A DNA stretch of 64,000 nt, from contig CAVRAY010000001.1 of NCBI GenBank assembly GCA_963719225.1, forward strand, positions 320,001 to 384,000. The letters are read 5' to 3'. This document shows positions 41,730-56,806 of the stretch, in pieces. The position numbers and the translations under genes are program-made. This DNA is from Thermoanaerobaculia bacterium (GTDB taxonomy: Bacteria; Acidobacteriota; Thermoanaerobaculia; UBA5066). Position 1 is the first letter of the stretch, and each line of letters opens with the position of its first letter. The notes under the pieces are model-generated. The model made no database searches, was not told where the DNA came from, and saw nothing but the letters and a program-made list of their open reading frames with translations.

Positions 41730-42317
41730 GTGGAGGTGCGAGTCGCGCCCGTGGGGGACATCACCTTGCTCCTCGCCGCCATCCGCGCGGGCGACGAAGA
41801 CGCGTCGTCGCGGCTTTTCTCTCTCGTCTACGACGAGCTCAAGCGCATCGCGCGCCGGCAGCTCCGCGTTCGGCTCCGACCCACGCTCACGACGACCGCT
41901 CTCGTCCACGAGACGTACGTGAAGCTCTCGGCGCACGGGCGCTGGTCGGCTCGCGACCGTTCTCACTTCTTCGCGCTCGCCGCGCGCGCGATGCGTCAGG
42001 TCGTCGTGGATTACGCGCGTGAACGGACCCGCGCCAAGCGGGGCGGGCGTGCGGCGCGCATCACGCTCGACGCGGCGTACGTCGTCTCGGTCGACGGCCC
42101 GGCCGAAGAAATCCTCGCGGTGGATCAGGCGCTCGAGCGGCTGGGGGAAGCCGATCCGGACCTGGCGCGCATCGTGGAGTGGCGGTTCTTCGGCGGACTG
42201 TCCATCGAGGAGATCGCCGACTCGCTGGAAGTCTCCGACAGGACCGTGAAGCGCCACTGGCGGGCCGCCCGGGCCTTCCTCTATCGGGAGCTCGGGGCTG
42301 GAGGCGCCACGGGATGA
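41730..42317 (+). CDS. ECF sigma factor (ECF43/TIGR02999-like)
   Basis: LVYDELKRIA, TTTALVHE, AARAMRQ, KRGG, RFFGGL, RTVKRHW. Confidence 0.92.
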   Translation: MEVRVAPVGDITLLLAAIRAGDEDASSRLFSLVYDELKRIARRQLRVRLRPTLTTTALVHETYVKLSAHGRWSARDRSHFFALAARAMRQVVVDYARERTRAKRGGRAARITLDAAYVVSVDGPAEEILAVDQALERLGEADPDLARIVEWRFFGGLSIEEIADSLEVSDRTVKRHWRAARAFLYRELGAGGATG

Positions 42318-45205
42318 AGGGCTCGGAACGCTTTCGCGAGGCGCGGGATCTCTTCGTCGAGCTCGTCGACCTGCCTCCCGCCGGGCAGGAGGCGCGCCTC
42401 GAAGCGCTCGCGCGCCTGGATCCCGAGCTCGCCGTCGAGGTGCGCCTTCTCTTCGAAGCCGACGCGAATGCAGAGGGATTCCTGGAAGAGCCGGCGCCGG
42501 AGCGGCTCGCCGCGCTGGCGGGCGAGGGCACCGGGAACGAGGGACTCGAAGACGAGCCTGAGACCCCCCTTGGCGAGCGCATCGGTCCCTACCGGACCTT
42601 GCGGCTCCTGGGGCGCGGTGGCATGGGCGAGGTCTTTCTGGCCGAGCGCGCGGACGGACAGTTCGAGCAGCGCGTGGCCTTGAAGCTCGTCAAGCGCGGC
42701 ATGGACTCGCAGGAAATTCTCTCCCGGTTCCGGCGTGAACGTCAGATCCTGGCGCGCCTCTCGCACCCGAACATCGCACGGCTTTTCGACGGAGGGCTCG
42801 CGGACGACGGCCGGCCGTACTTCGCTCTCGAATGCATCGACGGAGAGCCGATCACCGCGTATTGCGCCCAGCGGGACCTCCCGATCGAGGAGCGCGTGCG
42901 CCTCGCGGTCGTCTGCTGCGACGCGGTCGAGGTGGCGCACCGGAGCCTCGTCGTCCACCGCGACCTCAAGCCGTCGAACGTCCTCGTGACGACGGACGGC
43001 GATGTGAAGCTTCTCGACTTCGGGATCGCGAAGCTGCTCGAAGCGGACGACTCCGACGCCACCGTCACCCGGCGCGACTTCCGCGCTCTCACGCCGGCCT
43101 ACGCCGCGCCCGAGCTGATCCTGGGAGAGCCCGCCACGACGGCAGCGGACGTCTATTCGCTCGGCGTCGTTCTCTACGAGCTCCTGACGGGGACTCTGCC
43201 CTTCGAGCGAAAGGGCGCCTCGGCACATCGGCTTGCCGCTCACCTCGACGACGAGCTCCTCGAGCGCCCGAGCGTGCGCGCCCGGCGCGTGCTCGCCGAT
43301 CGACGCGCCGCCGCGCGGCAGGCACGCCGCCTCGCGGGTGATCTCGACAACATCCTCCTCACCGCGCTCCGCCGCGAGCCGGAAAGGCGGTATCGATCCG
43401 CCGCCGCCCTCGGCGAGGACTTGAGAAGGCATCTGGCAGGGCTGCCGGTCCGGGCGCGGGCGGACACGTTCCCATATCGCGCCGGCAAGTTTCTCAAGCG
43501 GCATCGCGCGGGGGTCGCGGCGGCCGCGTTCGTGCTTCTCGCTCTCGTGGCGGGACTCGCAGGAACGAGCTGGCAGGCGCGCCGTGCCGAGGCGAGCGCG
43601 CGCGAGGCCTCCGCTCAGGCGCTGCGCGCGGCACGAGTCAAGGAGTTTCTCATCACGCTCTTCGAGATCGCGGACCCGGAGCAGGCGGCGGGCGACCGGA
43701 TCACCGCCCGGCAGATCCTCGACCAGGGAACGCGCCGGCTGAGGACCGAGCTGGCCGCCGAGCCAGCCATTCAGGCCGACCTCCTGGAGGCCGTGGCGCG
43801 AATCGACCGTAGCCTCGGATTGCTCGAGCCGGCCGCCCTTCTGGCGGAGGAGTCCTTGCGGCTCCGGCGCGGGCGCCTCGCTGGAAGCGATCCCGCCGTG
43901 GGGAGCAGCCTGGCGACGCTGGGCGCCATTCGGATGGGCCAGGGAAAGCTCGACGAGGCCGAGCGCCATCTCAAGGAAGCGCTCACGATTCTGACGGCAC
44001 GCGAGTCGTCGTCGAGCCTCACGCTCGCCCGCGCGAGAGGCGACTACGGCGAGATCCTGTTCTGGAAGGGCAAGGTGGAGGAATCGGAGAAGATCGAGCG
44101 CCAGGTCTACGAGACGTATCGTCAGGTGCTCGGAGCCGAGCACGTCCAGACGGCGATCCACCTCCGGAACCTGTGCGTCCTCCTGGAGGCCGTCGGCCGC
44201 CTGGACGAGGCCGAACAGGCGTGCCGCGACTCGCAAGGCGTCCTGGAGAGGCATCTCGGTCCCGACCATGCGAACCTCGGCCAGAGCTATCTGAACCTGG
44301 CGGTGCTTCTCGACCACCGGGGAAAATCAGGCGAGGCGGAAACCCTCTATCGGCGCGCGCTCGGCGTCCGGAAGGCCACGCTCGGACCGAACCACCCGGC
44401 GACGGGGCAGAGCCTGCAGCTCCTCGCCCTCTTCCTCTTGAAAGAAGGGCGTATCGACGAGTCGGAGACGACGTACCGCGAGGCACTGACGCTCTTCACG
44501 AGGATCGATCCGAAACACTTCGAGATCGCCAAGTGCCGGAACGGACTCGCGCTGATCGAGTCGCGCCGCGGCCACTTCACCGCGGCGGAAAGCATCCTTC
44601 GCGAAGTCGTCGCGTCGTTCCGCGAGTCGCTCGGCGAGAAGCACCCGTTCGTCTGGCAAGGGACCGGAAACATGGCCGAACAGATCGCCCTTCAGGGACG
44701 CCTCGCGGAGGCGGAACGGCTACAGCGGCAGGTTGTCGCGCACCTCGAGGAGATCACTGGAAAAGAGAGCGGCGAAACCGCGCAGGCGCTGGGGCGCCTC
44801 GGCGACACGCTGCGGCGGCGGGGGACCGCGGCCGAGGCGGTTCTCCTTTGTCGGCGGTCGCTCGAGATCCAGAAAAAGATACTCGGTCCCGATCATCTGG
44901 ACGTGGCCCTGGCGAGCTCTCAGCTCGGCGCCGCACTTGCGGGTCTCCCCGAGGAAGCCGGATATCGCGAGGCCGACGAGCTTCTGGAACGCTCCGCCGC
45001 CGTCTATCGCAAGCTGAAGCCGGACCACCCTCGACTGCCGGACGTCCTTCTCACGCAAGGCCGGCTCGCGGCGGCCCGCGGCGACAATGAGCGTGCCCGC
45101 TCGCTGACCGCCGAGGCCGCCTCACTCCTCGAGAAGCTCTACGGAAAAGGCGACCGCCGGGTGCGGGAGGCGCGCGCCCTGCTAGCGTCCCATCCCGCCA
45201 CCTGA
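42314..45205 (+). CDS. Membrane Ser/Thr protein kinase with TPR repeats
   Basis: GRGGMG, VALK, HRDLKPSN, DFG, YAAPE, one TM, kinesin-light-chain-type TPRs; ATGA overlap with the sigma gene. Confidence 0.95.
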   Translation: MKGSERFREARDLFVELVDLPPAGQEARLEALARLDPELAVEVRLLFEADANAEGFLEEPAPERLAALAGEGTGNEGLEDEPETPLGERIGPYRTLRLLGRGGMGEVFLAERADGQFEQRVALKLVKRGMDSQEILSRFRRERQILARLSHPNIARLFDGGLADDGRPYFALECIDGEPITAYCAQRDLPIEERVRLAVVCCDAVEVAHRSLVVHRDLKPSNVLVTTDGDVKLLDFGIAKLLEADDSDATVTRRDFRALTPAYAAPELILGEPATTAADVYSLGVVLYELLTGTLPFERKGASAHRLAAHLDDELLERPSVRARRVLADRRAAARQARRLAGDLDNILLTALRREPERRYRSAAALGEDLRRHLAGLPVRARADTFPYRAGKFLKRHRAGVAAAAFVLLALVAGLAGTSWQARRAEASAREASAQALRAARVKEFLITLFEIADPEQAAGDRITARQILDQGTRRLRTELAAEPAIQADLLEAVARIDRSLGLLEPAALLAEESLRLRRGRLAGSDPAVGSSLATLGAIRMGQGKLDEAERHLKEALTILTARESSSSLTLARARGDYGEILFWKGKVEESEKIERQVYETYRQVLGAEHVQTAIHLRNLCVLLEAVGRLDEAEQACRDSQGVLERHLGPDHANLGQSYLNLAVLLDHRGKSGEAETLYRRALGVRKATLGPNHPATGQSLQLLALFLLKEGRIDESETTYREALTLFTRIDPKHFEIAKCRNGLALIESRRGHFTAAESILREVVASFRESLGEKHPFVWQGTGNMAEQIALQGRLAEAERLQRQVVAHLEEITGKESGETAQALGRLGDTLRRRGTAAEAVLLCRRSLEIQKKILGPDHLDVALASSQLGAALAGLPEEAGYREADELLERSAAVYRKLKPDHPRLPDVLLTQGRLAAARGDNERARSLTAEAASLLEKLYGKGDRRVREARALLASHPAT

Positions 45206-45223: not shown

Positions 45224-47083
45224 TTAGTTCGCGTGCGCTCGCAACGCGACGCCGGCGGCGACCACCAGGAGCAGACCGAGGAGCCCCAGCGCCCATGGCT
45301 GCAACGTTGGAACGTCCGTCGGCGCCGCACCGACCGGAATCACCGTGACGCTCGCCGACGCGGTGTCGCCCGCCCCGCCTTCGACCGAAGTCACGGCGCC
45401 GGAGACGTTGTTCTGCGTTCCCAGCGTCGTACCGGTCGCGTTCACGCCGAAGTTGCACGAGGCGCTCGCCGCGAGCGTCGCGCCCGCCAGGCTGACGGCA
45501 CCCGACCCGGCAATCGCCGTGATCGTGCCTCCACCGCAGCTCCCTGTGAGTCCGTTCGGAGTCGAGACGACGAGACCCGCCGGTAGCGTGTCGGTGAAGC
45601 CGACGCCGGTCAATGCCGTGGAAGAGTTGGGATTGTTGATCGTGAAGCTGAGCGAGGTCGACCCGTTCAGCACGACGGTCCCTCCGCCGAAAGACTTTGC
45701 GATCGTCGGCGGCGCGACAGCAGCCGCGACCGTCACGCTCGCCGAGGCCGTCCCGCCCGCACCGCCTTCGACCGAAGTCACCGCACCGGTCCCGTTGTTC
45801 TTCGTTCCCGTCGTGGTGCCGATCACGTTCACGCTGAAGGTACACGAGGCACTCGGCGCGAGCGTCGCGCCCGCCAGGCTGACGGCACCCGACCCTGCGG
45901 TCGCCGTGATCGTCCCGCCGCCGCAGCTGCCCGTGAGCCCGTTCGGGGTCGAGACGACGAGGCCCGCCGGCAACGTGTCGGTGAAACCGACGCCGGTCAA
46001 CGCCGTTGAAGCATTGGGGTTGTTGAGCGTGAAGCTGAGCGAGGTCGACCCGTTGAGCGGAATGCTCCCAGCACCGAAGGTCTTCGCGATCGTCGGCGGC
46101 GCGGTGGCGGCGCCGGTCGTGATGCGCCCGATCCGGTCGAGATTCTCTTCCGTGAACCACAGGTTGCCGTCGGGGCCGGCCGTGATGCCCTCCGGCCCGG
46201 CGGGGGCGGTGAGGCCGGCGCTGAACTCGGTGACGACTCCGGCCGGGGTGATGCGCCCGATCCGGTTGCCGCCTTCTTCCGTGAACCACAGGTTGCCGTC
46301 GGGGCCGGCAGTGATGCCGCGAAGCCCGGCGCCGGCTGTGATGCCAGCGCTGAATTCGGTGACGACTCCGGCCGGGGTAATGCGCCCGATCCGGTCGCTG
46401 CTGTTTTCCGTGAACCACAGGTTGCCATCGGGGCCGGCCGTGATGCCGTAGAGCCCCGCGTCGGCGGTGATGCCGGCGCTGAACTCGGTGACGACTCCGG
46501 CCGGGGTGATCCGCCCGATCCGGCTGACGTCGGCGCTTTCCGTGAACCACAGGTTGCCGTCGGGCCCTGCCGTTATGCCGAAAGGGGTCGAGCCGGGGCT
46601 AATGCCGGCGCTGAACTCGGTGACGACTCCGGCCGGCGTGATCCGTCCGATTCCGTCGGGATTGATTGTGAACCACAGGTTTCCATCCGGTCCGGACGTG
46701 ATGGAGCAATTTGGGTTGCCGGAGAGGCCGGCCGTGACCTCGGTGATGACGCCGAGGGGGGTGATCCGCCCGATCCGGTTGCCGCTCTCCGTGAACCACA
46801 GGTTCCCGTCGGGGCCGGCCGTGATGCCGCAAGGCGCCACGAAGCCGGCAGGGGTGAACTCGGTGACGACGCCGAGCGGAGTGATCCGCCCGATCAGGTT
46901 GCCGCCTTCTTCCGCGAACCACAGGTTGCCGTCGGGGCCGGCGGTGATTCCGAAAGGCGACGCGAACGGGCTGATGCCGGCGCTGAACTCGGTGATGACC
47001 TGGGCGTGAGCCGTACCGCTGAAAAGCCCGAGCAGGGCGAGAAACGCCGCCGTCGGCGCAGAGAGTCTGAGAAGACGCTGCAC
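45224..47083 (-). CDS. Surface protein: 7-bladed Vgb-like propeller + two Ig-like domains + IPTL-CTERM signal
   Basis: AAGGAGG RBS + GTG 47083, signal peptide, 7x GPDGNLWF, 2x PPTIAKxFG domain, VPTLQPWALGLLGLLL...R tail. Confidence 0.88.
   Translation of the reverse strand: MQRLLRLSAPTAAFLALLGLFSGTAHAQVITEFSAGISPFASPFGITAGPDGNLWFAEEGGNLIGRITPLGVVTEFTPAGFVAPCGITAGPDGNLWFTESGNRIGRITPLGVITEVTAGLSGNPNCSITSGPDGNLWFTINPDGIGRITPAGVVTEFSAGISPGSTPFGITAGPDGNLWFTESADVSRIGRITPAGVVTEFSAGITADAGLYGITAGPDGNLWFTENSSDRIGRITPAGVVTEFSAGITAGAGLRGITAGPDGNLWFTEEGGNRIGRITPAGVVTEFSAGLTAPAGPEGITAGPDGNLWFTEENLDRIGRITTGAATAPPTIAKTFGAGSIPLNGSTSLSFTLNNPNASTALTGVGFTDTLPAGLVVSTPNGLTGSCGGGTITATAGSGAVSLAGATLAPSASCTFSVNVIGTTTGTKNNGTGAVTSVEGGAGGTASASVTVAAAVAPPTIAKSFGGGTVVLNGSTSLSFTINNPNSSTALTGVGFTDTLPAGLVVSTPNGLTGSCGGGTITAIAGSGAVSLAGATLAASASCNFGVNATGTTLGTQNNVSGAVTSVEGGAGDTASASVTVIPVGAAPTDVPTLQPWALGLLGLLLVVAAGVALRAHAN
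45341..46102 (-). repeat. Two direct repeats with 387-bp period (Ig-like domains)
   Basis: 45341-45715 and 45728-46102 nearly identical. Confidence 0.9.
46115..47000 (-). repeat. Seven ~120-129-bp tandem propeller-blade repeats
   Basis: Recurrent GAACCACAGGTT.CC.TC.GG.CC on the + strand. Confidence 0.9.
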
Positions 47084-47233
47084 GATTGTCCTCCTTACCT
47101 CGGGGCTCGGCACTCCGGGCCTGAATAGGTAATCGACGAATTCGAGGAAAAGGGGACAACCCTTATCCGGAAAGCCGAGGTCAGTCCGCGAGCCTCCATG
47201 ACGCGCCGCGCGGCGCTGATATCCTCCGCGCGG

Positions 47234-47836: not shown

Positions 47837-48763
47837 AACGACGTCCCTCGGCGTGAACGAACGCGCCCGCAATCTCGAAACGCTCGCGTCCACGCCCGCC
47901 GCCCTCAAGGCTGCCCTTCGCGGCGTCCCCGCAAGCTTCTTCTCTTCGCGCCGGCGCCGGGCAAGTGGTCGATCCTCGAGATCCTGTGCCACCTGCGCGA
48001 CATGGAGCGCGAGGGATATCTCGAGAGATACACGCGCATCCTCGCCGAGAACGAGCCGCGCCTTCCCGACCTGAACGGCGACGCGCTCGCGATCGAGCGG
48101 GACTACCGGGCGCAGAAGGCGGGAGACGTCCTGCGCGACTGGATGCGCCTGCGCCGCGAGAGTCTCCGGCTCCTGAAGAAGTCGAAGCCCGAGCAGTGGC
48201 GGCGCGCCGGCATTCACGAGACGGCGGGCCGGCTCACGATCGACGACCTCGTCGTCCGGCACGCGGTCGGGAACGACACGGCTCACCTGGCCCAGATCGA
48301 CGCGATCAAGCGCCGGGCGGCGATCCTCGGACGGCTCTCCGCCGCTCCCGCGGCGCTCGCGGAAGCCCTCAAGGGCGTGGCGGACGACGTCGTCCGGCGC
48401 CGCCCGCCGACGGGAAAGTGGTCGATGGTCGAGAACGCGGCGCACATCCGGGACATCGAGCGTGTCTACCAGGAGCGGTTCTCGAAGATGGCGTTCTCAG
48501 ACCGTCCGGCGTTCTGGATGCTGGACAACGACCGCGCCGCGGCGCAGCTGAAATACGGAGAGTCCGATCCGGGGACCGTCCTGAAGGAGTTTCGGCGGCT
48601 CAGGGAGGACACGCTCCTCCTCCTGCGCGCGCTGCCCGATACGGCGTGGCGGCGCACAGGACTGCACCCGAAGCGCGGCGAGCTGACGGTCGAGCAGCTC
48701 GCGGAGGTGCTCGCGAGCCACGACGACAGCCACATTGGAAGGATCCGCGAGCAAAAAGGATAA
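47829..48763 (+). CDS. Tandem DinB/YfiT-family protein, frameshift at C-run ~47927-47930
   Basis: Two GKWSxxExxxH..D domains with terminal H/NDxxH; adding one C restores GVPRKLLLFAPAPGKWS. Confidence 0.82.
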
Positions 48764-48771
48764 GGTCGCCC

Positions 48772-48801
48772 TTGACATATCAATATTAGTTGATATATAT
48801 T
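48772..48801 (+). promoter_or_regulatory. ars promoter with ArsR operator
   Basis: TTGACA...TATATT enclosing ATCAA-TATTAG-TTGAT (48779-48794). Confidence 0.85.
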
Positions 48802-48807
48802 GCCGCC

Positions 48808-49202
48808 ATGGCAGGACCAGCCATCCCGGCTAGGAGATTCCGAGAAAGACTTGATGTGGGACGCCTTGCGCGGCTGTTCCATGCGCTTTCGGACGAGACA
48901 CGGCTGAAGATCGTCGAGCGGCTGCTTAGCGGTGAGCAGTGCGTCTGCAACCTCATGGAACCACTAGGTTTAGGGCAATCTCATCTGTCGTTTCACATGA
49001 AGACCCTGAAAGACGCCGGGCTTGTGACCGATCGCCGAGCCGGTCGTTGGATCCACTATTCACTCAAGCCGGGAACCCTCGAGGAGATTCAGGAGTTCCT
49101 CGGGACGGTCGGGAAAAGGCCGCCCAGCTGGAGGCGGCACGGTGCTGCGAGAAGGATAAGAAAGAGTCGCCGGGACAGCTTTATGGTTTCTCTATCTTCT
49201 AA
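48808..49202 (+). CDS. arsR: ArsR/SmtB repressor, probable frameshift ~49111-49117
   Basis: ALSDETRL, EQCVC As-binding box, QSHLSFH, GRWIHY; shifted frame ends AARCCEK...stop 49202 (unshifted frame runs to 49254). Confidence 0.88.
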
Positions 49203-49204
49203 GA

Positions 49205-49220
49205 ATCAAAAAATCTTGAT
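49205..49220 (+). promoter_or_regulatory. Second ArsR operator upstream of arsM
   Basis: ATCAA-AAAATC-TTGAT. Confidence 0.78.
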
Positions 49221-49235
49221 TGAATGGAGCCTGCC

Positions 49236-50059
49236 ATGTCAGAAACGAACCTGAAGGACATCGTGAAGGAGAAATACGGCGAGGCCGCCAAGCGCGCGTC
49301 GACGGGCGGCAGCGCTTGCTGTGGAGGGGCTTCCGCGATCGCCGGGGCGAAGGATCCCATCACGTCGAATCTCTACGGCGCCAACGAGACGCTCGGCCTT
49401 CCCTCCGCGGCGGTCTCGGCTTCTCTCGGCTGCGGCAATCCGACGGCGCTCGCCGAGCTCCATGAAGGCGAAACGGTCCTCGACCTCGGCTCGGGCGGCG
49501 GCATCGACGTCCTGCTGTCGTCGCGGCGCGTCGGACCCGCGGGGAAGGTCTACGGCCTCGACATGACGGACGAGATGCTCGCGCTCGCGCGGGAGAACCA
49601 GGGGGGCGCGCGCGTCACGAACGTGGAGTTCCTGAAGGGCGAGCTCGAGAACATTCCCCTTCCCGACGGGAGCGTCGACGTCATCATCTCGAACTGCGTC
49701 ATCAACCTCTCGGCCGACAAGGACCGCGCCCTGTCCGAGGCGTTCCGCGTCCTGAGGCCGGGCGGCCGGTTCGCGGTCTCCGACGTCGTCGTACGCGGCG
49801 CGGTCCCCGTGGAGGTGCGCCGCGAGCGTCGAGCTCTGGATCGGCTGCCTCGCCGGCGCACTCGAGGAGAAGGAGTTCGACGCCAAGCTGACGAAGGCCG
49901 GATTCGACCGGCGTCGAGATCGTCCCGACGCGCGTCTACGACGTCGACGACGCGCGCGACTTCCTCGCGGCGGCCGGAATCGATGCGGACGCGCTCGCTC
50001 CCCAGGTGGACGGGAAGTTCATGAGCGCGTTCGTGAGGGCCACGAAGCCGGCTGCCTGA
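49236..50059 (+). CDS. arsM: Arsenite methyltransferase with two apparent +1 insertions (~49822, ~49908)
   Basis: SACCG, SLGCGNP, LDLGSGGG, SNCVINL; other frames give LWIGCLAGAL and SAFVRATKP; length 824 = 3n+2. Confidence 0.9.
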
Positions 50060-50068
50060 GGCCGAGCC

Positions 50069-51136
50069 ATGGGAACCTTCGAGCGCTTCCTCTCGCTCTG
50101 GGTCGCCCTCTGCATGGCGGCGGGCGTCGCGCTGGGCACGCTGTTTCCGGGCGCAGTTGCCGCGCTGCGCGGGCTGGAGCTCGGCGAGGGAAGCCACGTG
50201 AACGCGGCGATCATGGTCCTGATCTGGCTCATGGTCGCGCCGATGATGGCGAGGATCGACTTTCCGGCCATTCGCAACATCGGGCGGGAGCCGCGCGGGC
50301 TCGCCGTCACGCTCTTCGTGAACTGGCTCGTGAAGCCGTTTTCGATGGCCTTCCTCGCCTGGCTCTTCTTCCGGCACGCCTTTGCCGCGTGGATCGCCCC
50401 CGCGGTGGCGGATCAGTACATCGCCGGAACGATCATTCTCGCCGCAGCGCCCTGCACGGCGATGGTCTTCGTCTGGAGCGCGCTCACGCGCGGCGACCCG
50501 GCGTACACCCTCGTCCAGGTGGCCCTGAACGACCTCGTGATGCTCGTGCTGTTCGTCCCGATCGTGCGCTTCCTCGTGCGCGGGGCGTCTTCTCTCGAAG
50601 TCCCGATGCGCGTGCTCGTCACGTCCGTCGTCGCGTTTCTCGTCGTCCCGCTCGCCGTCGGAATCGTGTTACGTGCGTGGGCCATCGCGCGGCGCGGAAA
50701 GGTCTGGCTCGAAGGCACGCTGCTGCCCCGGCTCGCGCCGGTCACGGTCGCCGCGCTCCTCCTGACGCTCGTCGCCATCTTCGCGTTCCAGGCGGACAAC
50801 GTGCTGGGGAAGCCTCTTCACGTCGTCCTCATCGCGGTTCCCATCCTGCTGCAGGTCTACTTCAACTCGGCCCTCGCCTACGGTCTCATGAAGGCGGCCG
50901 GCGTCAGGCATGCGATCGCGGCCCCGGGCGCGCTCATCGGCGCAAGCAACTTCTTCGAGCTCGCCGTGGCCACCTCGATCGCGCTTTTCGGGCCCGAGTC
51001 GGGAGCCGCTCTCGCAACCACCGTCGGTGTTCTCGTCGAGGTGCCCGTCATGCTCTCCGTCTGCGCCGCGTGCAACCGCACGCGCGCCTGGTTTCCGGCT
51101 CCCGGCATGGCCCATGCGGCCGGAGGCCCCCTGTGA
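50069..51136 (+). CDS. acr3: ACR3 family arsenite efflux transporter
   Basis: FERFLSLWV, NWLVKPF, APCTAMVFVW, ASNFFELA, VLVEVPVML. Confidence 0.96.
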   Translation: MGTFERFLSLWVALCMAAGVALGTLFPGAVAALRGLELGEGSHVNAAIMVLIWLMVAPMMARIDFPAIRNIGREPRGLAVTLFVNWLVKPFSMAFLAWLFFRHAFAAWIAPAVADQYIAGTIILAAAPCTAMVFVWSALTRGDPAYTLVQVALNDLVMLVLFVPIVRFLVRGASSLEVPMRVLVTSVVAFLVVPLAVGIVLRAWAIARRGKVWLEGTLLPRLAPVTVAALLLTLVAIFAFQADNVLGKPLHVVLIAVPILLQVYFNSALAYGLMKAAGVRHAIAAPGALIGASNFFELAVATSIALFGPESGAALATTVGVLVEVPVMLSVCAACNRTRAWFPAPGMAHAAGGPL

Positions 51137-51543
51137 AAGCCCGAGGACTCCTCTTCCTGTGCGTCGCGAACTCGGCTCGAAGCCAGATCGCCGAGGGACT
51201 CGCCCGCGCGCGCTTCGGGGACGCGGTGCGCGTCCAGAGCGCCGGCTCGGACGCCGCGGGCGTGAACCCGCTCGCGGTGAAGGTCCTGGCGGAGCTCGGC
51301 ATCGACATCTCCTCACAGGCCTCCAAGACCGTCGATACGATCGATCCCGCGACCGTCGACACGGTCGTCACCCTCTGCGCCGAGGAGGTCTGCCCGGTCT
51401 TCCTCTCGAAGGCGCGGCACCTCCACTGGCCTCTTCCGGACCCGACGGCCGGAGGCGGAACGGAGGAGGAGCAGCTGGAGCGTTTCCGCCGGACGCGGGA
51501 CGAGTTGAAGCTCCGAATCGACTCGTTCGCGATTCTTACTTGA
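51133..51543 (+). CDS. arsC: Thioredoxin-type (LMW-PTP fold) arsenate reductase
   Basis: LFLCVANSARSQ, TLC...CP, HWPLPDP, FRRTRDE. Confidence 0.93.
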   Translation: MKARGLLFLCVANSARSQIAEGLARARFGDAVRVQSAGSDAAGVNPLAVKVLAELGIDISSQASKTVDTIDPATVDTVVTLCAEEVCPVFLSKARHLHWPLPDPTAGGGTEEEQLERFRRTRDELKLRIDSFAILT

Positions 51544-52622
51544 CGATCTGATAGACGAGCGCGCGAGGAGCCCGCCACCGGCAGCGTGACGAGCCACGCG
51601 AGGAGCATCTCGCGGACGGTCCGCCACTGGATCCGGCTCTCCTTCGACTCGGCCCCGATCCCGATGATCGCCCCCGAGGACACGTGCGTCGTCGAGACGG
51701 GAAGCGCCCAGAAGGAAGCGGCGCTCACGAGCGCGCGAGGTCGTGAGGTTCGCGAGGAGGCCGTCGTCGTGGCCGATGCGTGTGACCTTTCGCGCGAGCG
51801 TCTCCGTCACGCGGAAGCCCCCGAGGAAGCTGCCGAGGCTCATCGCCACGGCGACGAGCGCGTAGAACCCGAACGCGCGAGATGCCGAAACCGGCCGTCG
51901 CCGCGATGCCGAGAGCGAGGATCTTCGGCGTGTCGTTGAGCCCGCGGAAGAAGCTCGTCGCACCCGCCGAAGTCCAGTGCAGCGAGTCGAGGAGCGCCCA
52001 CGCGCACAAGCGTCTCGGGCGGGCAGTCGGATGAGGCGACGAGGTCCAGCGTGGGGAGGGGAGACGCGAACGCCACGCCGGCCGCCGCGGGAACGGGCTC
52101 CCGCCGCTCGACGCAGACGCAGAACCGGTGCGCGCGGCGAAAGACGGGGAGAACGGCGGGCGCGAGGAGCAGCACGATCGCGGCGGAGATCACGGGCGAG
52201 AGCGCGAGCGGCAGCGCAACCTTCTTCGCGACCGCCGCCCAGGCGACGCCCGGGGCGCCCGACGCGGCGAGACCGGCGCCGCAGAGGGCGCCCGGCAAGC
52301 GCATGCGTCGTCGAGACGGGAAGCCCCGTGCGGGTCGCGAAGAGAAGCCACCCGATCGCGCCGCAGGCGACCGAAAGGAGAAGAGCGTTGCCGCTTCCGG
52401 CGGATTCACGAGGAGCCCCTTGCCGCTGAAGGTCGCGACGAGTCCCTGAGAGAAGAATGCGGCCACGAGTCCTCCCGCGAGCGTCCACGCCGTGCCCCAC
52501 GCGACCGCGGTCCGGTACCTGGTCGTTCCCGAGCCGACGAGCGTTGCGATGCCCTTCGACACGTCGTTCGCGCCGTTCGCGAACGCGAGGCCGAGCGTCA
52601 GGAGAACGAGGACGACGCCCAT
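51536..52622 (-). CDS. PiT-family inorganic anion transporter, multiple frameshifts
   Basis: FANGAND, GLPVSTTH, RGLNDTPKI, LPVSTTHVSSG motifs spread over three frames; TGATG coupling with the upstream gene. Confidence 0.8.
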
Positions 52623-55120
52623 CAACAGCAGCTCGTCCCGTCGGCGCCCGGCGCGCAGCACGCGTAACCGGCGCGCTCTTCACCCGGCTCGAGGATCGCG
52701 AAGAAGCCCTGGTACGGGGGATGCGAGAGCTTCGCGACGGTGTCGGTGCAGATTTCGTAAGGCTCGTTGCGCGGGAACTGGTGACCCTCCTCGTCGACGA
52801 AGGCCTTGCCAGGCCCGAGGTAGACGGCGCGATGGCCCTGGAAGACGCAGCCTGAGGTCTTCTCGAACTTGAAGCCCCGTACCGTGACGGAGAAGAAGGG
52901 ATATCCCTCGACGTCCTTCCAGTAGCTCTTTTTCAGGATCTCGAGGCCGTAGAACCCGGCGCGTTCGAGGCCGGCGAGGAAGCCCTCCTGCGTGAGCGCG
53001 CCTACGAGGCACTCGCCCCACAGCCGCGGGTTCGTCTTGAGGTGCGGCGGCACGTCCTCTTCCGAGACGATGTCCGAGATCACGATGCGCCCGTGATCCT
53101 TCAGGACACGCCAGATCTCCTCGAAGACGCGCGGCTTGTCGGGCGAGAGGTTCACGACGCAGTTCGAGGTGACGAGGTCGACGGTTTTCGATTCCACGGG
53201 GATCTTCTCGAGGAACCCTTCGCGGAACTCGACGACGTCGTATCCGAGCGCCGCGGCCACGATCGGCTTGTTCTCGTGCGCGACCGCCAGCATCCGGTCC
53301 GTCATGTCGACGCCGATGGCCTTCCCCGTTCCTCCGACGAACTTCGCCGCGATGAAGACGTCGATGCCCGCCCCCGAGCCGAGGTCGACGACGGTCTCGC
53401 CTTCCCGGATTCCGGCGGTCGTCATGGGCGAGCCGCACCCGTAGAAGCGGTCGATCACGTCCTTGGGGATGTGGGAAACCGCCGCGTCGTCGTATTTCGT
53501 CGGGCAGCACAGCTCGGGCTGCGGCGTCTCGGCCGCGGCGCCGTAGAACTCGCGCATCTTCGCGCGCGGCTTGTCGACGTCGAACGAGAGGACGCAGTTG
53601 GAATGAAGCGTCAGCACCGCCTTCTCGGCGAGCGTTCCGTCGGCGGTTCCGCAGGCGATCGCGCCTTCTCCCATCGCATGGAGGACGAGCGGCGCGTCGT
53701 ATCCGGAACGCACGTTCCGCCGTCCTCTCTTCTCGCGGCCGAGGTCGGTCATGACCCTCTTCGTGAGCGCGACGGAGATCGGGTAGTAGGGATCGTCGCC
53801 GAGGAAGTCTCCGCCGGAGAAGCACCACGCGTGCTCGAGATCCCCGCCGCCCGTGAAGAAGCGGAAGGGATCGCCGTTCATCGACGGCTTCCGGGCGAGC
53901 GTGGCGGCCCGAAGCGTCCTGACGATCGGCGACGTTTCGAGGACCTCGCGAAGATCCTGCCGCGAGACGTCGCCGCAGACGAGCGCCGGCTCGTTCGCGA
54001 GGGCCGCGGTCGGGTAGACCTTGCCGTCCGCGTACACGCAGATCGAGTCCCAGCCGGCGTTTCCGAGGTCGTACTTGACGCCCGGGACGCCGTTCACGCG
54101 GCGCTTGATCGCCTCGAGGTTGTCGAGCGTGGTTCCCTCGCGTGCCGCGGCATCCGCGACGGCGAGAACTGCCTTGAGGAGAAGGACGTTCTCCGGAAAG
54201 AAGCCGTTTCCGCTCTCGAGCGCACGGCCGCGCCGGTGGCTCCACATGAGGTGCTGGCTCTTCGCGCCGACGCGCTTGACGAGGGCGGGGATCTCGACGA
54301 GCTCGGAGAGGTTCTCCTCGGTCGTGACCGTCGTCAGGGAGACGTCGAAGCCCATGTCCGCGAGGAGCTTCGCGCCGTCGAGAGCCTTCACGAACGTGCC
54401 GCCTCCGCGGATCGGGTCGTTCGTCTCCGGGCGCGCGCCGTCGAGGGAGACCTGGAACTTCACGCGGGAACGATCGAGCGATTCGAGGCCATTCTTCACG
54501 GCGCCCACGAAGACGGTCGCGTTCGTGAGGACGATCATCTCGGCCCCGTGGGTCTCGGTGGCGCGCTTCGCGAGATCGAAGAGATCCTTCCTCAGGAACG
54601 GCTCCCCGCCCGTGACGTAGAGGCGTTCCATCCCGAGCTCGGCCGCGCGGTCGACGAGCTTCGCGAGGGCGGCGGGATCGATGCCCGGCGCGCCGCCGGG
54701 CCCCGACGAGACGAGGCAGTGCGTGCAGGTGAGGTTGCAGGCGTTGTTGATCTGCAGCCACAGCTCCCGAAGTCCCGACGGCTCGATGAGAGCGGCGCGG
54801 CCGGGGTATGGCGCCCGGGCGAACGGGGCGTCGTGCAGCATGCCCGCGCGGTCGAGGGCGCGGAGGAAGCCGTGGACGTGGACCCATGCCTTCCCCGCCT
54901 CGAGCTGGTGATCCGCGGCCCAGCGCGCGACGCAGGTTCCGAACGCGAGAGGCGCGCCGGCCTCCTCCGCGGTCCGAATCGCGCTGAGCAGCTCTCCGCC
55001 GCGCGCGTCGACGGCGATCCAGTTCGGCGCCTCGGGGTCGACGGCATAGAGGACGTCGTCCTCGGTGAACGTGTGGAACGCGGGCAAGTGGAGCGGAGTC
55101 CGCTCCGCGAGAACGGTCAT
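52622..55120 (-). CDS. Radical SAM-ArsM-type methyltransferase fusion
   Basis: CNLTCTHC, TGGEP, LTN, SLDG; then LCCP, YGCGSP, DLGSGAG, SNCVVNL, WGECLVGA, C-terminal SCC; GGAGG RBS. Confidence 0.92.
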   Translation of the reverse strand: MTVLAERTPLHLPAFHTFTEDDVLYAVDPEAPNWIAVDARGGELLSAIRTAEEAGAPLAFGTCVARWAADHQLEAGKAWVHVHGFLRALDRAGMLHDAPFARAPYPGRAALIEPSGLRELWLQINNACNLTCTHCLVSSGPGGAPGIDPAALAKLVDRAAELGMERLYVTGGEPFLRKDLFDLAKRATETHGAEMIVLTNATVFVGAVKNGLESLDRSRVKFQVSLDGARPETNDPIRGGGTFVKALDGAKLLADMGFDVSLTTVTTEENLSELVEIPALVKRVGAKSQHLMWSHRRGRALESGNGFFPENVLLLKAVLAVADAAAREGTTLDNLEAIKRRVNGVPGVKYDLGNAGWDSICVYADGKVYPTAALANEPALVCGDVSRQDLREVLETSPIVRTLRAATLARKPSMNGDPFRFFTGGGDLEHAWCFSGGDFLGDDPYYPISVALTKRVMTDLGREKRGRRNVRSGYDAPLVLHAMGEGAIACGTADGTLAEKAVLTLHSNCVLSFDVDKPRAKMREFYGAAAETPQPELCCPTKYDDAAVSHIPKDVIDRFYGCGSPMTTAGIREGETVVDLGSGAGIDVFIAAKFVGGTGKAIGVDMTDRMLAVAHENKPIVAAALGYDVVEFREGFLEKIPVESKTVDLVTSNCVVNLSPDKPRVFEEIWRVLKDHGRIVISDIVSEEDVPPHLKTNPRLWGECLVGALTQEGFLAGLERAGFYGLEILKKSYWKDVEGYPFFSVTVRGFKFEKTSGCVFQGHRAVYLGPGKAFVDEEGHQFPRNEPYEICTDTVAKLSHPPYQGFFAILEPGEERAGYACCAPGADGTSCC

Positions 55121-55169
55121 CGCCAACCTCCTGGAACTTCGCGGGGGTTTCTCGTGCGGGAGAGGGGCT

Positions 55170-55862
55170 TCAGGCGGCGGCCGGGGCGGGAGGGGCGCGC
55201 GCGGGCGCGACCGGGCGGAACCCGTGGGTGAACGCCGGACGGACGCGCGCGGGAGGGGCGGGGACGGGACGAAGCGAAACGAGGAGCGTCGCGAGCGCGG
55301 GATCCAGGTCCGGCCCCGACGCGAGCACCGCGAGGTCGGACGGGCGATCCACGTCGAGGAGCGGGTCCAGCAGGGCCGCGCCGGGCGCGTTGCGGAGGAG
55401 AGCCCAAAAGACGCCCGCCGTCCGCCACGGCACTTCTTGGAAGAGTCCCGAAAGGTCGGTTGCCGCGCGCGACCCGATCAGCCAGACGCCGCCGTCCGGG
55501 GACGGGCCGAGCACGATCTCCCGCGTTTCGAGCGCGAGGAAGGCGGCGGCCAGCTGCGCTTCGCAAAGGCCGGGGACGTCTCCCGGCACCGCGACGATCT
55601 CCGAGTAGCCGCGCGCGCGCGCGTCCTGGAAGGCGTTCTTCAGGCGTTCGCCGAATCCGCGGCCGCGCTGCGGCAGGACGCTCGCCCGTTCGTGCGAGAG
55701 GCCTTCACCCGCGACGACCAGGTCGACTCCGAGAGTCCGCGTCACGTCGGACACGCGCCGCATCGAGAACGCGAAGAGCCGGCCGCCGCCCGGCATTCTC
55801 TTCATCGCCCCTTCGCGGAGAGGGGACCTCGAAAACAGCAGGACGCACCGGGATGGGCTCAC
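55170..55862 (-). CDS. DUF2064/TIGR04282-like (CofC-fold) transferase
   Basis: QRGRGFGERL, PGDVP, VLGPSPDGGVWLIG, FQEVPW, LLDVD. Confidence 0.85.
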   Translation of the reverse strand: MSPSRCVLLFSRSPLREGAMKRMPGGGRLFAFSMRRVSDVTRTLGVDLVVAGEGLSHERASVLPQRGRGFGERLKNAFQDARARGYSEIVAVPGDVPGLCEAQLAAAFLALETREIVLGPSPDGGVWLIGSRAATDLSGLFQEVPWRTAGVFWALLRNAPGAALLDPLLDVDRPSDLAVLASGPDLDPALATLLVSLRPVPAPPARVRPAFTHGFRPVAPARAPPAPAAA

Positions 55863-55984
55863 GTGTCTGACTTCTGAATGCTAATACGACCCTCCCGCAT
55901 TCCCCGGATCATGTGGACGGGATCTCCGTCGCGGGGGGGCGGGCCTCCCTCAGCCCTACGGCTCTCTGATTTTTCCGCGGATTC

Positions 55985-56012
55985 TGAAACCTTTTCGGAC
56001 CGATTGCGTCTT
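55985..56012 (+). promoter_or_regulatory. ECF-sigma-type promoter
   Basis: TGAAAC-N16-CGTC upstream of 56063. Confidence 0.5.
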
Positions 56013-56062
56013 CTTTCTTGAAGCGAGGCCCCCGGGGGCGGAAAAAGGTGAACGAGGGAATC

Positions 56063-56341
56063 ATGGAAACGGCCGCAGAACTTCACGAGGCGAGAGTCCT
56101 CAGGGCGCGAATCGAGATGAAAGAGGCCGAAATGGCGGCCCTCGACGGAAGCGTTCCGCCGGACGAACGCGCGCGGCGCGCCGAGGAGATGGGGAACGAG
56201 ATCTCGCACATGAAAGAGGACTACCGGCGGGTCCTCGCGCGCCAGGCCGACGAGGACTATTCCCGCCGCCGCGCCGAGTGGCGTGCCCAGCAGGGCCGTC
56301 GCGCGTCCTGCCGCCGCTCCGGCACGAGCGCCTGCGCCTGA
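56063..56341 (+). CDS. Hypothetical coiled-coil protein (92 aa)
   Basis: GAGG RBS, helical charged composition. Confidence 0.65.
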   Translation: METAAELHEARVLRARIEMKEAEMAALDGSVPPDERARRAEEMGNEISHMKEDYRRVLARQADEDYSRRRAEWRAQQGRRASCRRSGTSACA

Positions 56342-56347
56342 ACCAGG

Positions 56348-56806
56348 CTACTTCTTCGAGACCTCGAAGCTGATCTTGATCGTCCTGGCGATCTTGTAAT
56401 CGTTCGTGAACATCTTCACGAACATCGAGTTCGTGTCGTCGATCTTTCCCTTGTCGAGCGTCGCCGTCCGGTCGTTCTCGCCGAACGGCTTGCCGCCCTT
56501 GCCGCCCGGGATCGTGACGACGTACTTGCACTTGTAGTCCTTGTCACGGTCCCGGTTCGAGTAGCGGAACTCCACGACCATCGTGTGCTTGTCGTTCAGG
56601 TCCTTCTGGGCCTTCTGGAAGTCGTCGGAGTCGGGCCAATGCCGGATGCGGAAGGACTCGATCGTCACGTCTCCGACCTTGATCCCGATCTTGATGTCCT
56701 TGTCGCCTTCGAAGGGAAAGGTGCGGTCGAATTTTCCCGACTGGGCGAAAGCGGAAAAGCACGCGAGCAGCGCGGCCGCGAGAGCGGCAAAGCGAAGCCG
56801 TTTCAT
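56348..56806 (-). CDS. Secreted hypothetical protein (paralog of 15501..15974)
   Basis: GGAGG RBS, signal peptide, FRYSNRD and RTATLDK..DDT. Confidence 0.85.
   Translation of the reverse strand: MKRLRFAALAAALLACFSAFAQSGKFDRTFPFEGDKDIKIGIKVGDVTIESFRIRHWPDSDDFQKAQKDLNDKHTMVVEFRYSNRDRDKDYKCKYVVTIPGGKGGKPFGENDRTATLDKGKIDDTNSMFVKMFTNDYKIARTIKISFEVSKK

Follow-up and report, generated by a model that had tools for sequence, protein, structure and literature searches.

What would a bacterium make with a protein in which a radical S-adenosylmethionine (SAM) barrel is joined to a complete arsenite methyltransferase? The question is raised by a 64,000-nucleotide stretch of DNA from a Thermoanaerobaculia bacterium (contig CAVRAY010000001.1, positions 320,001 to 384,000; hereafter the window), in which a minus-strand operon encoding a DUF2064 protein, this fusion protein and a PiT-family transporter meets a plus-strand arsR-arsM-acr3-arsC operon. 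An earlier, sequence-only reading had described the minus-strand operon with its TGATG coupling and the plus-strand operon with the stop codons overlapping at 51536-51543, and coordinates together with profile matches confirmed both. Our preferred explanation, to which we give a probability of roughly 0.55, is that the fusion protein replaces ArsS plus ArsM in an arsenosugar-type pathway, in which arsenate would be imported, methylated and adenosylated to a precursor of the 5'-deoxy-dimethylarsinoyladenosine (DDMAA) type. The genes of the minus-strand operon, in which the start of pit is coupled to the stop of the fusion gene at 52620-52624, are the following.

55170..55862 (-): DUF2064 (CofC-fold) leader gene, 230 amino acids (aa), PF09837 79 bits
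52622..55120 (-): radical SAM and methyltransferase fusion gene, 832 aa, intact
51536..52622 (-): PiT/PHO4 phosphate-type transporter gene (pit), PF01384 matches in three frames, 7 small indels

A radical SAM-ArsM enzyme distinct from ArsS and ArsL

From its N terminus the fusion protein comprises an RRE-like domain, a radical SAM barrel, a SPASM region without cysteines, a two-cysteine tail, a three-domain ArsM and a C-terminal CC..CC. Within the gene these parts are located as follows.

54848..55081 (-): RRE/PqqD-like domain, residues about 14-91, three strands and three helices in the AlphaFold2 (AF2) secondary structure
54086..54784 (-): radical SAM core, PF04055 82.6 bits, CxxxCxxC motif with C128/C132/C135 at 54716-54739
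53723..54076 (-): degenerate SPASM region, auxiliary-cluster cysteines replaced
53585..53674 (-): tail of the radical SAM module with C490 and C509, predicted arsenic-binding segment
52625..53578 (-): three-domain arsenite methyltransferase, four ArsM cysteines (C538/539, C562, C654, C704) and Cys-rich end

Conservation was counted over 59 full-length homologs, and the three CxxxCxxC cysteines, C490 and C509, and the four ArsM cysteines were found in every one of them (59/59), with the terminal CC present in 56/59. Residues 13-464 of the model superposed on CteB (5WGG; Z 30.8, root-mean-square deviation (rmsd) 4.5, 407 aligned residues) and thereby share the fold of the CteB/SkfB/PqqE group of RRE-radical SAM-SPASM maturases. 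The N-terminal domain aligned with the N terminus of CteB, a relative of the fusion matched PF05402 (E 3.7e-10), and beta-3 and helix-3 residues are conserved; this domain, which the sequence-only reading had overlooked along with the RAPP end of the DUF2064 protein, is predicted to be RRE-like. Unlike those maturases, the fusion carries an ArsM and has lost the auxiliary-cluster cysteines, all SPASM cluster positions being replaced in an alignment with PqqE (by G/N, T and D/R/T/D). Deeper relatives retain these cysteines.

The segment with C490 and C509 was assigned to the radical SAM module because stand-alone and ArsM-first relatives terminate at the same motif. Viperin-like structures align up to residue ~513-517, which gives a weak hint that this tail reaches the barrel, at low local confidence (predicted local distance difference test (pLDDT) <50 at residues 488-493 and 508-515). 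For the methyltransferase part, residues 511-809 aligned with CrArsM 5EVJ (E 1.3e-40), the fold of residues 511-812 matched 6CX6/4FR0 (Z 28.1, rmsd 6.9, 271-276 aligned), and the four cysteines aligned with the Cys motifs of CrArsM/CmArsM. When examined as a member of the ArsM/AS3MT group, the part showed a class I methyltransferase fold together with the N- and C-terminal domains of ArsM. The fusion scored below the NCBIfam whole-protein cut-offs for ArsM (PRK11873 232.6 vs 263; NF040538 201 vs 500; NF038099 157 vs 400).

Two candidate identities were rejected. As an ArsS, the fusion reached 61.8-64.5 bits on TIGR04167 against a cut-off of 300, over model positions 5-150 of 303, and DUF3641 was absent although ArsS controls contained it. 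As an ArsL, it was not matched by NF040542 at E<=1, and it has neither the RCCLKC tail nor ArsQ. With the ArsM plus ArsS pathway (TIGR04167, NF038099, TIGR04282/04283/04169) it shares a radical SAM and a three-domain ArsM with a Cys-rich tail behind the barrel; unlike ArsS, its barrel derives from an RRE-radical SAM-SPASM scaffold, has an added RRE-like domain and is fused to ArsM throughout the fusion clade. ArsS itself also occurs fused to ArsM: all eight long ArsS frames fetched (L155-L162) were true ArsS joined to a three-domain ArsM in one chain of 659-717 aa, seven of them with accessory genes. With the ArsL plus ArsM pathway to arsinothricin (NF040542, arsQML) it shares radical SAM arsenic-carbon (As-C) chemistry, a Cys tail thought to hold arsenic and a four-Cys ArsM. 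Judged by its sequence, the fusion is a radical SAM-ArsM enzyme outside both the ArsS and the ArsL family, in agreement with the sequence-only reading, whose suggestion of an undescribed enzyme that probably forms a radical As-C bond is also supported. The literature searched, which mostly lay outside subscription journals, contained no paper on an RRE-radical SAM-ArsM fusion, and the portions available of PMC8552651, PMC13188914 and 10.1101/2023.11.02.563126 do not mention it.

The family comprises no fewer than 120 clusters of near-full-length members (>=72% identity) and 130 representatives at E<=1e-30. Its Atlas clusters were led by Acidobacteriota, Nitrospirota and Thermodesulfobacteriota, and a plasmid search with the radical SAM part gave no match at 1e-20. 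In a tree of 60 barrels, a quick and unfinished search, 21 rows including that of the window formed a clade (Shimodaira-Hasegawa-like approximate likelihood ratio test (SH-aLRT) 99) distant from ArsS. Some relatives have the reverse order with the ArsM-type domain first (P0176, P0177, P0189), and one is fused to DUF2064 (P0269).

Other arrangements were also observed. The radical SAM modules of P0151, P0153, P0141, P0149, P0156 and P0269 are fused to TusA, a non-ArsM methyltransferase or DUF2064. A sister subfamily (L087-L096, L140, L154) of ~1,000-1,050 aa ends in DUF5714, a domain resembling the selenoprotein MbdU, and lacks the first ArsM cysteine; nothing on DUF5714 with radical SAM and arsenic was found in the literature searched, again mostly without subscription journals.

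Probable exchange with ArsS and a third radical SAM enzyme

We used a class sample of 201 genomes, including three flagged as unpublished (G004, G174, G178), the samples being incomplete. The radical SAM part was matched in 33 genomes, 25 with the ~830-aa type (>=41% identity) and 8 with only the ~1,050-aa DUF5714 type. ArsS was present in 52 genomes and overlapped with the ~830-aa fusion in none of the 25, where 6.5 were expected; counting all 33 matches the overlap was 2 against 8.5 expected. A third radical SAM enzyme, found in 51 genomes, overlapped with the fusion in 2 and with ArsS in 3 (13.2 expected for ArsS). A total of 129 of the 201 genomes have ArsS, a fusion type or the third enzyme. 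Exactly one of the three occurred in each of the 12 genomes of the window's genus g1, and at least one in 47 of the 48 genomes of family f5 (hand count). The window genome yielded no ArsS, no TIGR04169 and no third-type enzyme.

In genus g1 the three enzymes occupy one chromosomal slot behind an AAA_28-DinB pair, often beside arsM; the pair was Pfam-checked in the window and in L115, and assigned elsewhere by size and order. The slot holds ArsS in L115, L116 and L118 (the last with arsM-arsC), the third type with arsM in L105 and L106, and the fusion in the window. A second phylum, that of G203 and presumably Nitrospirota from its order name, had ArsS in 136 of 201 genomes; ArsS was present in three of the nine homolog-bearing genomes against 6.1 expected, these three carrying the most distant homologs, and absent from the other six. 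Taken together, these patterns suggest that the fusion behaves as an ArsS substitute and probably does the same job. DUF2064 was present in 128 of the 129 genomes bearing one of the three enzymes, a co-occurrence that is weakened because the canonical copy has a constant housekeeping location and is also present in 31 genomes that lack all three enzymes.

The third enzyme is a ~295-aa radical SAM protein whose Cys tail resembles that of ArsS (L105:3063-3947 (-), L106, L108, L111-L114, L173-L176); a calcineurin-like phosphoesterase comes after it. It often lies behind the same type of RAPP leader with TIGR04169-like, porin and ABC (ATP-binding cassette) genes, and once right after an ArsM-type gene (L176). 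At L173:14830-15081 (+) there is a separate 83-aa open reading frame (ORF) ending in RAPPAA, possibly a further arrest leader.

Gene neighbourhoods of the fusion

Neighbouring genes were detected by tblastn in 68 GTDB loci, among which three pairs share an assembly; with one reference used per neighbour, distant ars genes may have escaped detection. The sequence-only reading had built its system on the convergence with the ars operon, and this did not hold across genomes: acr3/arsC lay near the fusion in 4/68 loci and any ars gene in 6/68, five of the six being close syntenic kin, while 62/68 loci had none (23/29 among loci with >=5 kb on both sides). As ars genes adjoin few homologs, mostly syntenic kin, the convergence is a local feature. 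In this the cassette also differs from arsQML, which is an arsenic-induced ars operon (PMC8552651).

A phosphate-type transporter was a more regular neighbour. Either PiT or the Pst ABC importer was present in 41/68 loci; among the 54 loci with enough flank, PiT was adjacent in 26 and Pst in 9, and the two were never found together. Replacement of PiT by an importer with a binding protein argues for uptake, so that of the earlier proposal for PiT the functional link to the fusion stands and the suggested export does not. The fusion-linked PstS (L039:3221-4060 and 7 other loci) was unmatched to the housekeeping PstS of the window genome (tblastn, 1e-5) and may be a specialised subfamily.

At least one accessory cassette gene was present in 23/68 loci: TIGR04283-type in 8 (one of them at 228 bits against a cut-off of 182), canonical DUF2064 in 7, MerA-like in 12, TVP38 in 10 and DUF547 in 8. 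Further neighbours were DUF3047 (4 loci) and DUF3179 (6 loci). Most of these accessory genes also flank true ArsS (L123, L126, L141, L143), the order in L123 being ArsM-PiT-ArsS-TIGR04282/04283-DUF547. The gene set resembles the arsenosugar (ArsS) cassette far more than the sequence-only reading had assumed, with the accessory genes, PiT and, in close kin, the chromosomal slot in common. Similar genes are scattered in the window genome: a canonical-type DUF2064 (G000:C1:2512749-2513438), a TIGR04283-like gene (2751087-2751806; 147.6 bits over model positions 73-221, below the cut-off and possibly frameshifted), a MerA-like and TVP38 pair (C1:3189520-3191733) and DUF547 (C2:260824-261690).

Downstream of the fusion, at a distance of ~2.5 kb, two loci also have ORFs of ~50 aa bearing an ELEERIAP-type motif (L058:15169-15318 (+), L065:14930-15250 (+)). 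They adjoin GAF and kinase genes and resemble precursors of ribosomally synthesised and post-translationally modified peptides (RiPPs) from an unrelated system.

A predicted DUF2064 leader ending in RAPP

The DUF2064 protein had been taken simply for a tailoring transferase. It turned out to be a divergent subtype with a RAPP tail, which scored 90 bits on TIGR04282 against a cut-off of 134, over model positions 66-189 only, and the genome has a separate canonical copy. In this RAPP-tailed subtype the N-terminal K-x-P..KTRL motif of TIGR04282 is replaced. RAPP forms residues 222-225 (55188-55199 (-)), five residues from the stop. It was found that R[AG]PP occurs within the last 16 residues of 23/26 DUF2064 copies directly upstream, the remaining three ending in Pro-rich variants, and of 0/7 other copies in the same loci; only 21 of 858 called genes have this feature and all 21 are DUF2064 leaders. 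The motif lies mostly 52-57 residues past the last D-x-D motif and 2-10 before the stop. In the AF2 model (pLDDT 92) the folded domain, which is nucleotidyltransferase-like and matches 3CGX (template modelling (TM) score 0.72) and CofC 7P97, extends to residue ~197, with no helix or strand beyond, ~25 residues ahead of RAPP. The 3' end of the gene and the spacer behind it form one further feature.

55121..55315 (-): C>G-rich stretch, leader 3' end plus 49-nucleotide spacer, candidate Rho-utilisation region as in cruR

In 78-nucleotide windows over this stretch C was 0.47-0.55 and G 0.27-0.28, a composition that makes it a candidate for such a region. C exceeded G in 26/28 leader spacers compared with 69/132 other spacers, kin not being independent in this count.

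We consider it quite probable, from these sequence features, that the DUF2064 leader is a RAPP ribosome-arrest sensor heading the operon. According to PMC12992588, RAPP/RGPP is strongly avoided in proteomes and enriched in leaders, and its source data include at least 44 DUF2064-RAPP rows, at least 37 of them before TonB/SusC receptors and at least 7 before the ArsS-associated TIGR04169 gene. From these rows and the loci analysed here, leaders of this type head fusion, third-type and ArsS-type operons as well as uptake genes. The main text of PMC12992588 does not mention DUF2064, and no DUF2064 leader appeared in the available main texts of the literature searched. Like CruR (DUF2946), ApdA/ApdP and the S. 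lividans set of PMC12992588, the leader has R[AG]PP a few residues from its stop and is the first gene of an uptake-type operon with a C>G-rich region behind it. Unlike them, its sensor would be a whole ~200-aa cytoplasmic CofC-fold domain instead of a small exported or CxxC peptide. Leader control covers part of the range of the fusion and is a further difference from ArsS.

Proposed pathway

In the pathway we propose, arsenate would enter through PiT, or in other genomes through the dedicated Pst-type ABC importer, and would be reduced to As(III) by ArsC or a thiol system in trans. The ArsM domain would then methylate As(III) to methylarsenite (MAs(III)) or dimethylarsenite (DMAs(III)), a step to which the fold and four invariant cysteines point strongly. 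The methylarsenical may be handed to the tail with C490 and C509, where the barrel opens, by analogy with the RCCLKC tail of ArsL, which binds arsenic according to 10.1101/2024.02.01.577332 and 10.64898/2026.04.29.721666. There the 5'-deoxyadenosyl radical would add to arsenic and give DDMAA or a close relative, as ArsS does (PMC13598754 and 10.64898/2026.04.29.721666). The ArsS reaction proceeds without net reductant (PMC13598754), and the loss of auxiliary clusters fits such chemistry because that reaction is redox-neutral. Canonical TIGR04282 and TIGR04283 proteins would finally carry the ribosyl-arsenic to sugars or lipids, their genes lying in cis in some genomes and elsewhere on the chromosome in the window genome.

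Taken on its own, the regulatory step also seems quite probable: the ribosome would stall at RAPP, leaving the DUF2064 domain directly beyond the tunnel exit, and would shield the C-rich Rho site. Binding of a ligand would release the stall and transcription would end before the fusion gene, as for CruR, whose stall keeps Rho off until its ligand releases it (PMC9426467). The leader would in this way switch off the fusion and the transporter when its ligand is present, and through it the production of both, the latter being the predicted importer of arsenate, likely follows demand and not arsenic stress.

Several observations weigh against these proposals. The barrel is not ArsS, to which it has 28% identity over 149 aa only, and its closest solved folds are the peptide maturases CteB, SkfB and ChlB. 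The ArsM-first and DUF2064-fused relatives fall outside the supported fusion clade in the quick tree, some radical SAM relatives bear TusA or a non-ArsM methyltransferase instead, and accessory cassette genes were seen at the above 23 of 68 loci only. As for the exclusion, kin genomes are not independent in the counts and the P values are therefore too optimistic, the cut between 25 close and 8 distant genomes was drawn after the hits were seen, and the overlap of the 8 distant DUF5714-type genomes with ArsS is what chance would give (2 vs 2.1 expected). In Gemmatimonadota (251 genomes; 18 fusions, 21 ArsS) the overlap was 1 against 1.5 expected, and genome G444 has both fusion and ArsS intact, so that exclusion is not absolute. 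Most Gemmatimonadota fusions are without a DUF2064 leader (17 of 43 DUF2064 match patterns aside), and PMC12992588 states that RAPP by itself is insufficient for arrest. The leader may also still be an enzyme, because D95, D170 and D172 are retained in the window; D95, D123 and D172 are invariant and D170 nearly so. These aspartates have a role in magnesium binding in CofC. The leader may be enzyme and sensor at once.

Alternative explanations

Among the alternatives, formation of another As-C product fares best, and we regard it as doubtful. Here the barrel would transfer an aminocarboxypropyl group like ArsL, or couple arsenic to a co-substrate radical, to give a new organoarsenical. The barrel is indeed unrelated to ArsS at the family level, ArsL binds arsenic with a Cys tail (10.1101/2024.02.01.577332), and the ArsM domain scored higher on the arsinothricin-type than on the arsenosugar ArsM model (201 vs 157 bits, both far below cut-off). 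That point is weak because the ArsS-linked ArsM of L123 also favours the arsinothricin-type model (330 vs 121). The ArsL model, including RCCLKC, was unmatched even at E<=1, and the shared accessory genes and the exclusion with ArsS point to a shared product.

Improbable, in our estimate, is a role of the RRE-radical SAM module in modifying some peptide or a protein, be it a RiPP precursor or the module's own Cys tail; ArsM would add arsenic or a methyl group to the product. It would account for the RRE-like domain with its conserved beta-3 and helix-3 residues, for CteB, SkfB and TigE as best folds, and for sactipeptide maturases among the best NCBIfam radical SAM matches, all far below cut-off. 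However, no conserved small ORF was found within 4 kb over 90 fusion loci (385 candidates), although a distant precursor gene may exist; no conserved peptidase or exporter occurred in the neighbourhoods, the SPASM cysteines are lost, and ArsS, for which the fusion is exchanged, needs no peptide.

We give similarly little credence to a non-arsenic substrate (selenium, antimony, mercury, or a sulfur or phosphorus compound) for which ArsM-like domains would have been recruited. MerT/HMA/MerR lie near 3-6 of 68 loci and GrdB/PrdB-like genes near 6/68, relatives include TusA fusions, the DUF5714 of the sister subfamily resembles MbdU, and for a toxin pathway it is surprising that nearly all members of some families should need one of three enzymes. 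On the other side, the fusion retains the full set of four ArsM cysteines as well as the C-terminal domain of ArsM, phosphate-type importers fit arsenate, and ArsS, which the fusion excludes, makes DDMAA (PMC13598754 and 10.64898/2026.04.29.721666).

A unit for organoarsenical synthesis and export that is integrated with the convergent ars operon, with DUF2064 as its tailoring enzyme, is very improbable: the overlapping stops, the six loci with arsM or more beside the cassette, the genus g1 slot as an arsenic island and the CofC-type aspartates of the leader would suit it, but 62/68 loci have no ars gene, Pst replaces PiT, the operons lie on opposite strands and an ArsR-type promoter was found on the ars side only.

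The ars operon, flanking genes and assembly quality

The plus-strand operon is an ordinary ars operon, with the following features.

48772..48801 (+): sigma-70-like promoter overlapping an imperfect palindrome, consensus match 11/12
48808..51543 (+): ars operon, arsR first
48808-49254 (+): arsR, first gene of the operon
49236-50059 (+): arsM, PRK11873 over cut-off, two frameshifts
50069-51136 (+): acr3, TIGR00832 over cut-off
51133-51543 (+): arsC, last gene of the operon

The promoter was the sole sigma-70-like match within 48600-56400, the scan giving none for the minus-strand operon, and its palindrome is a probable ArsR operator. The arsR gene encodes 148 aa and overlaps arsM; ArsR of kin has ~112-131 aa. 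The 8-nucleotide tail-to-tail overlap of pit and arsC comprises pit TAA at 51536-51538 and arsC TGA at 51541-51543.

The fusion gene is intact; as assembled, pit has 7 small indels, arsM 2 and the upstream dinB 1, none of which the sequence-only reading had reported. These ten indels cluster in ~4.5 kb (window 47900-52400), several in GC-repeat context, and the remaining neighbour genes tested against two relatives gave single-frame alignments. The extra bases at 49906, 51735, 51877-8 and 52395 are absent from short-read contigs of close relatives, and locus L001 has an intact 360-aa PiT (198.6 bits to PF01384). The indels are likely errors of long-read assembly, and may alternatively reflect pseudogenisation. 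The closest named homologs are from Thermoanaerobaculia (88-91% identity).

Two further genes in the window are unrelated to the fusion operon. We take 42179-45205 (+) to encode an ECF (extracytoplasmic function)-sigma-coupled Ser/Thr kinase with TPR-like repeats, and 45224-47159 (-) presumably encodes a beta-propeller repeat surface protein with an IPTL-type C-terminal anchor.

Significance

What is new here is the evidence of ArsS substitution, a third interchangeable enzyme, the PiT/Pst swap, and the leader and enzyme as one system. To our knowledge, two radical SAM families make As-C bonds. If our proposal is true, the fusion is a third such family, evolved from a peptide-maturase scaffold with its own methyltransferase, and a single protein could carry arsenite through to an arsenosugar precursor. 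A survey based on arsS counts would overlook the fusion: of the 201 genomes sampled from the class, 52 have ArsS, compared with 129 for all three kinds of enzyme. The pattern of nearly one enzyme per genome, together with the importers and the predicted arrest leader, suggests that organoarsenical synthesis has a function beyond detoxification.

A wider picture is conceivable, which we offer as speculation and think unlikely to hold in full. Many soil and groundwater bacteria would treat arsenic as a wanted nutrient, with dedicated PiT, Pst, porin or TonB import, an arseno-ribosyl metabolite or lipid made by any of three interchangeable, non-orthologous radical SAM enzymes, and feedback through a product-sensing arrest leader with an enzyme fold.

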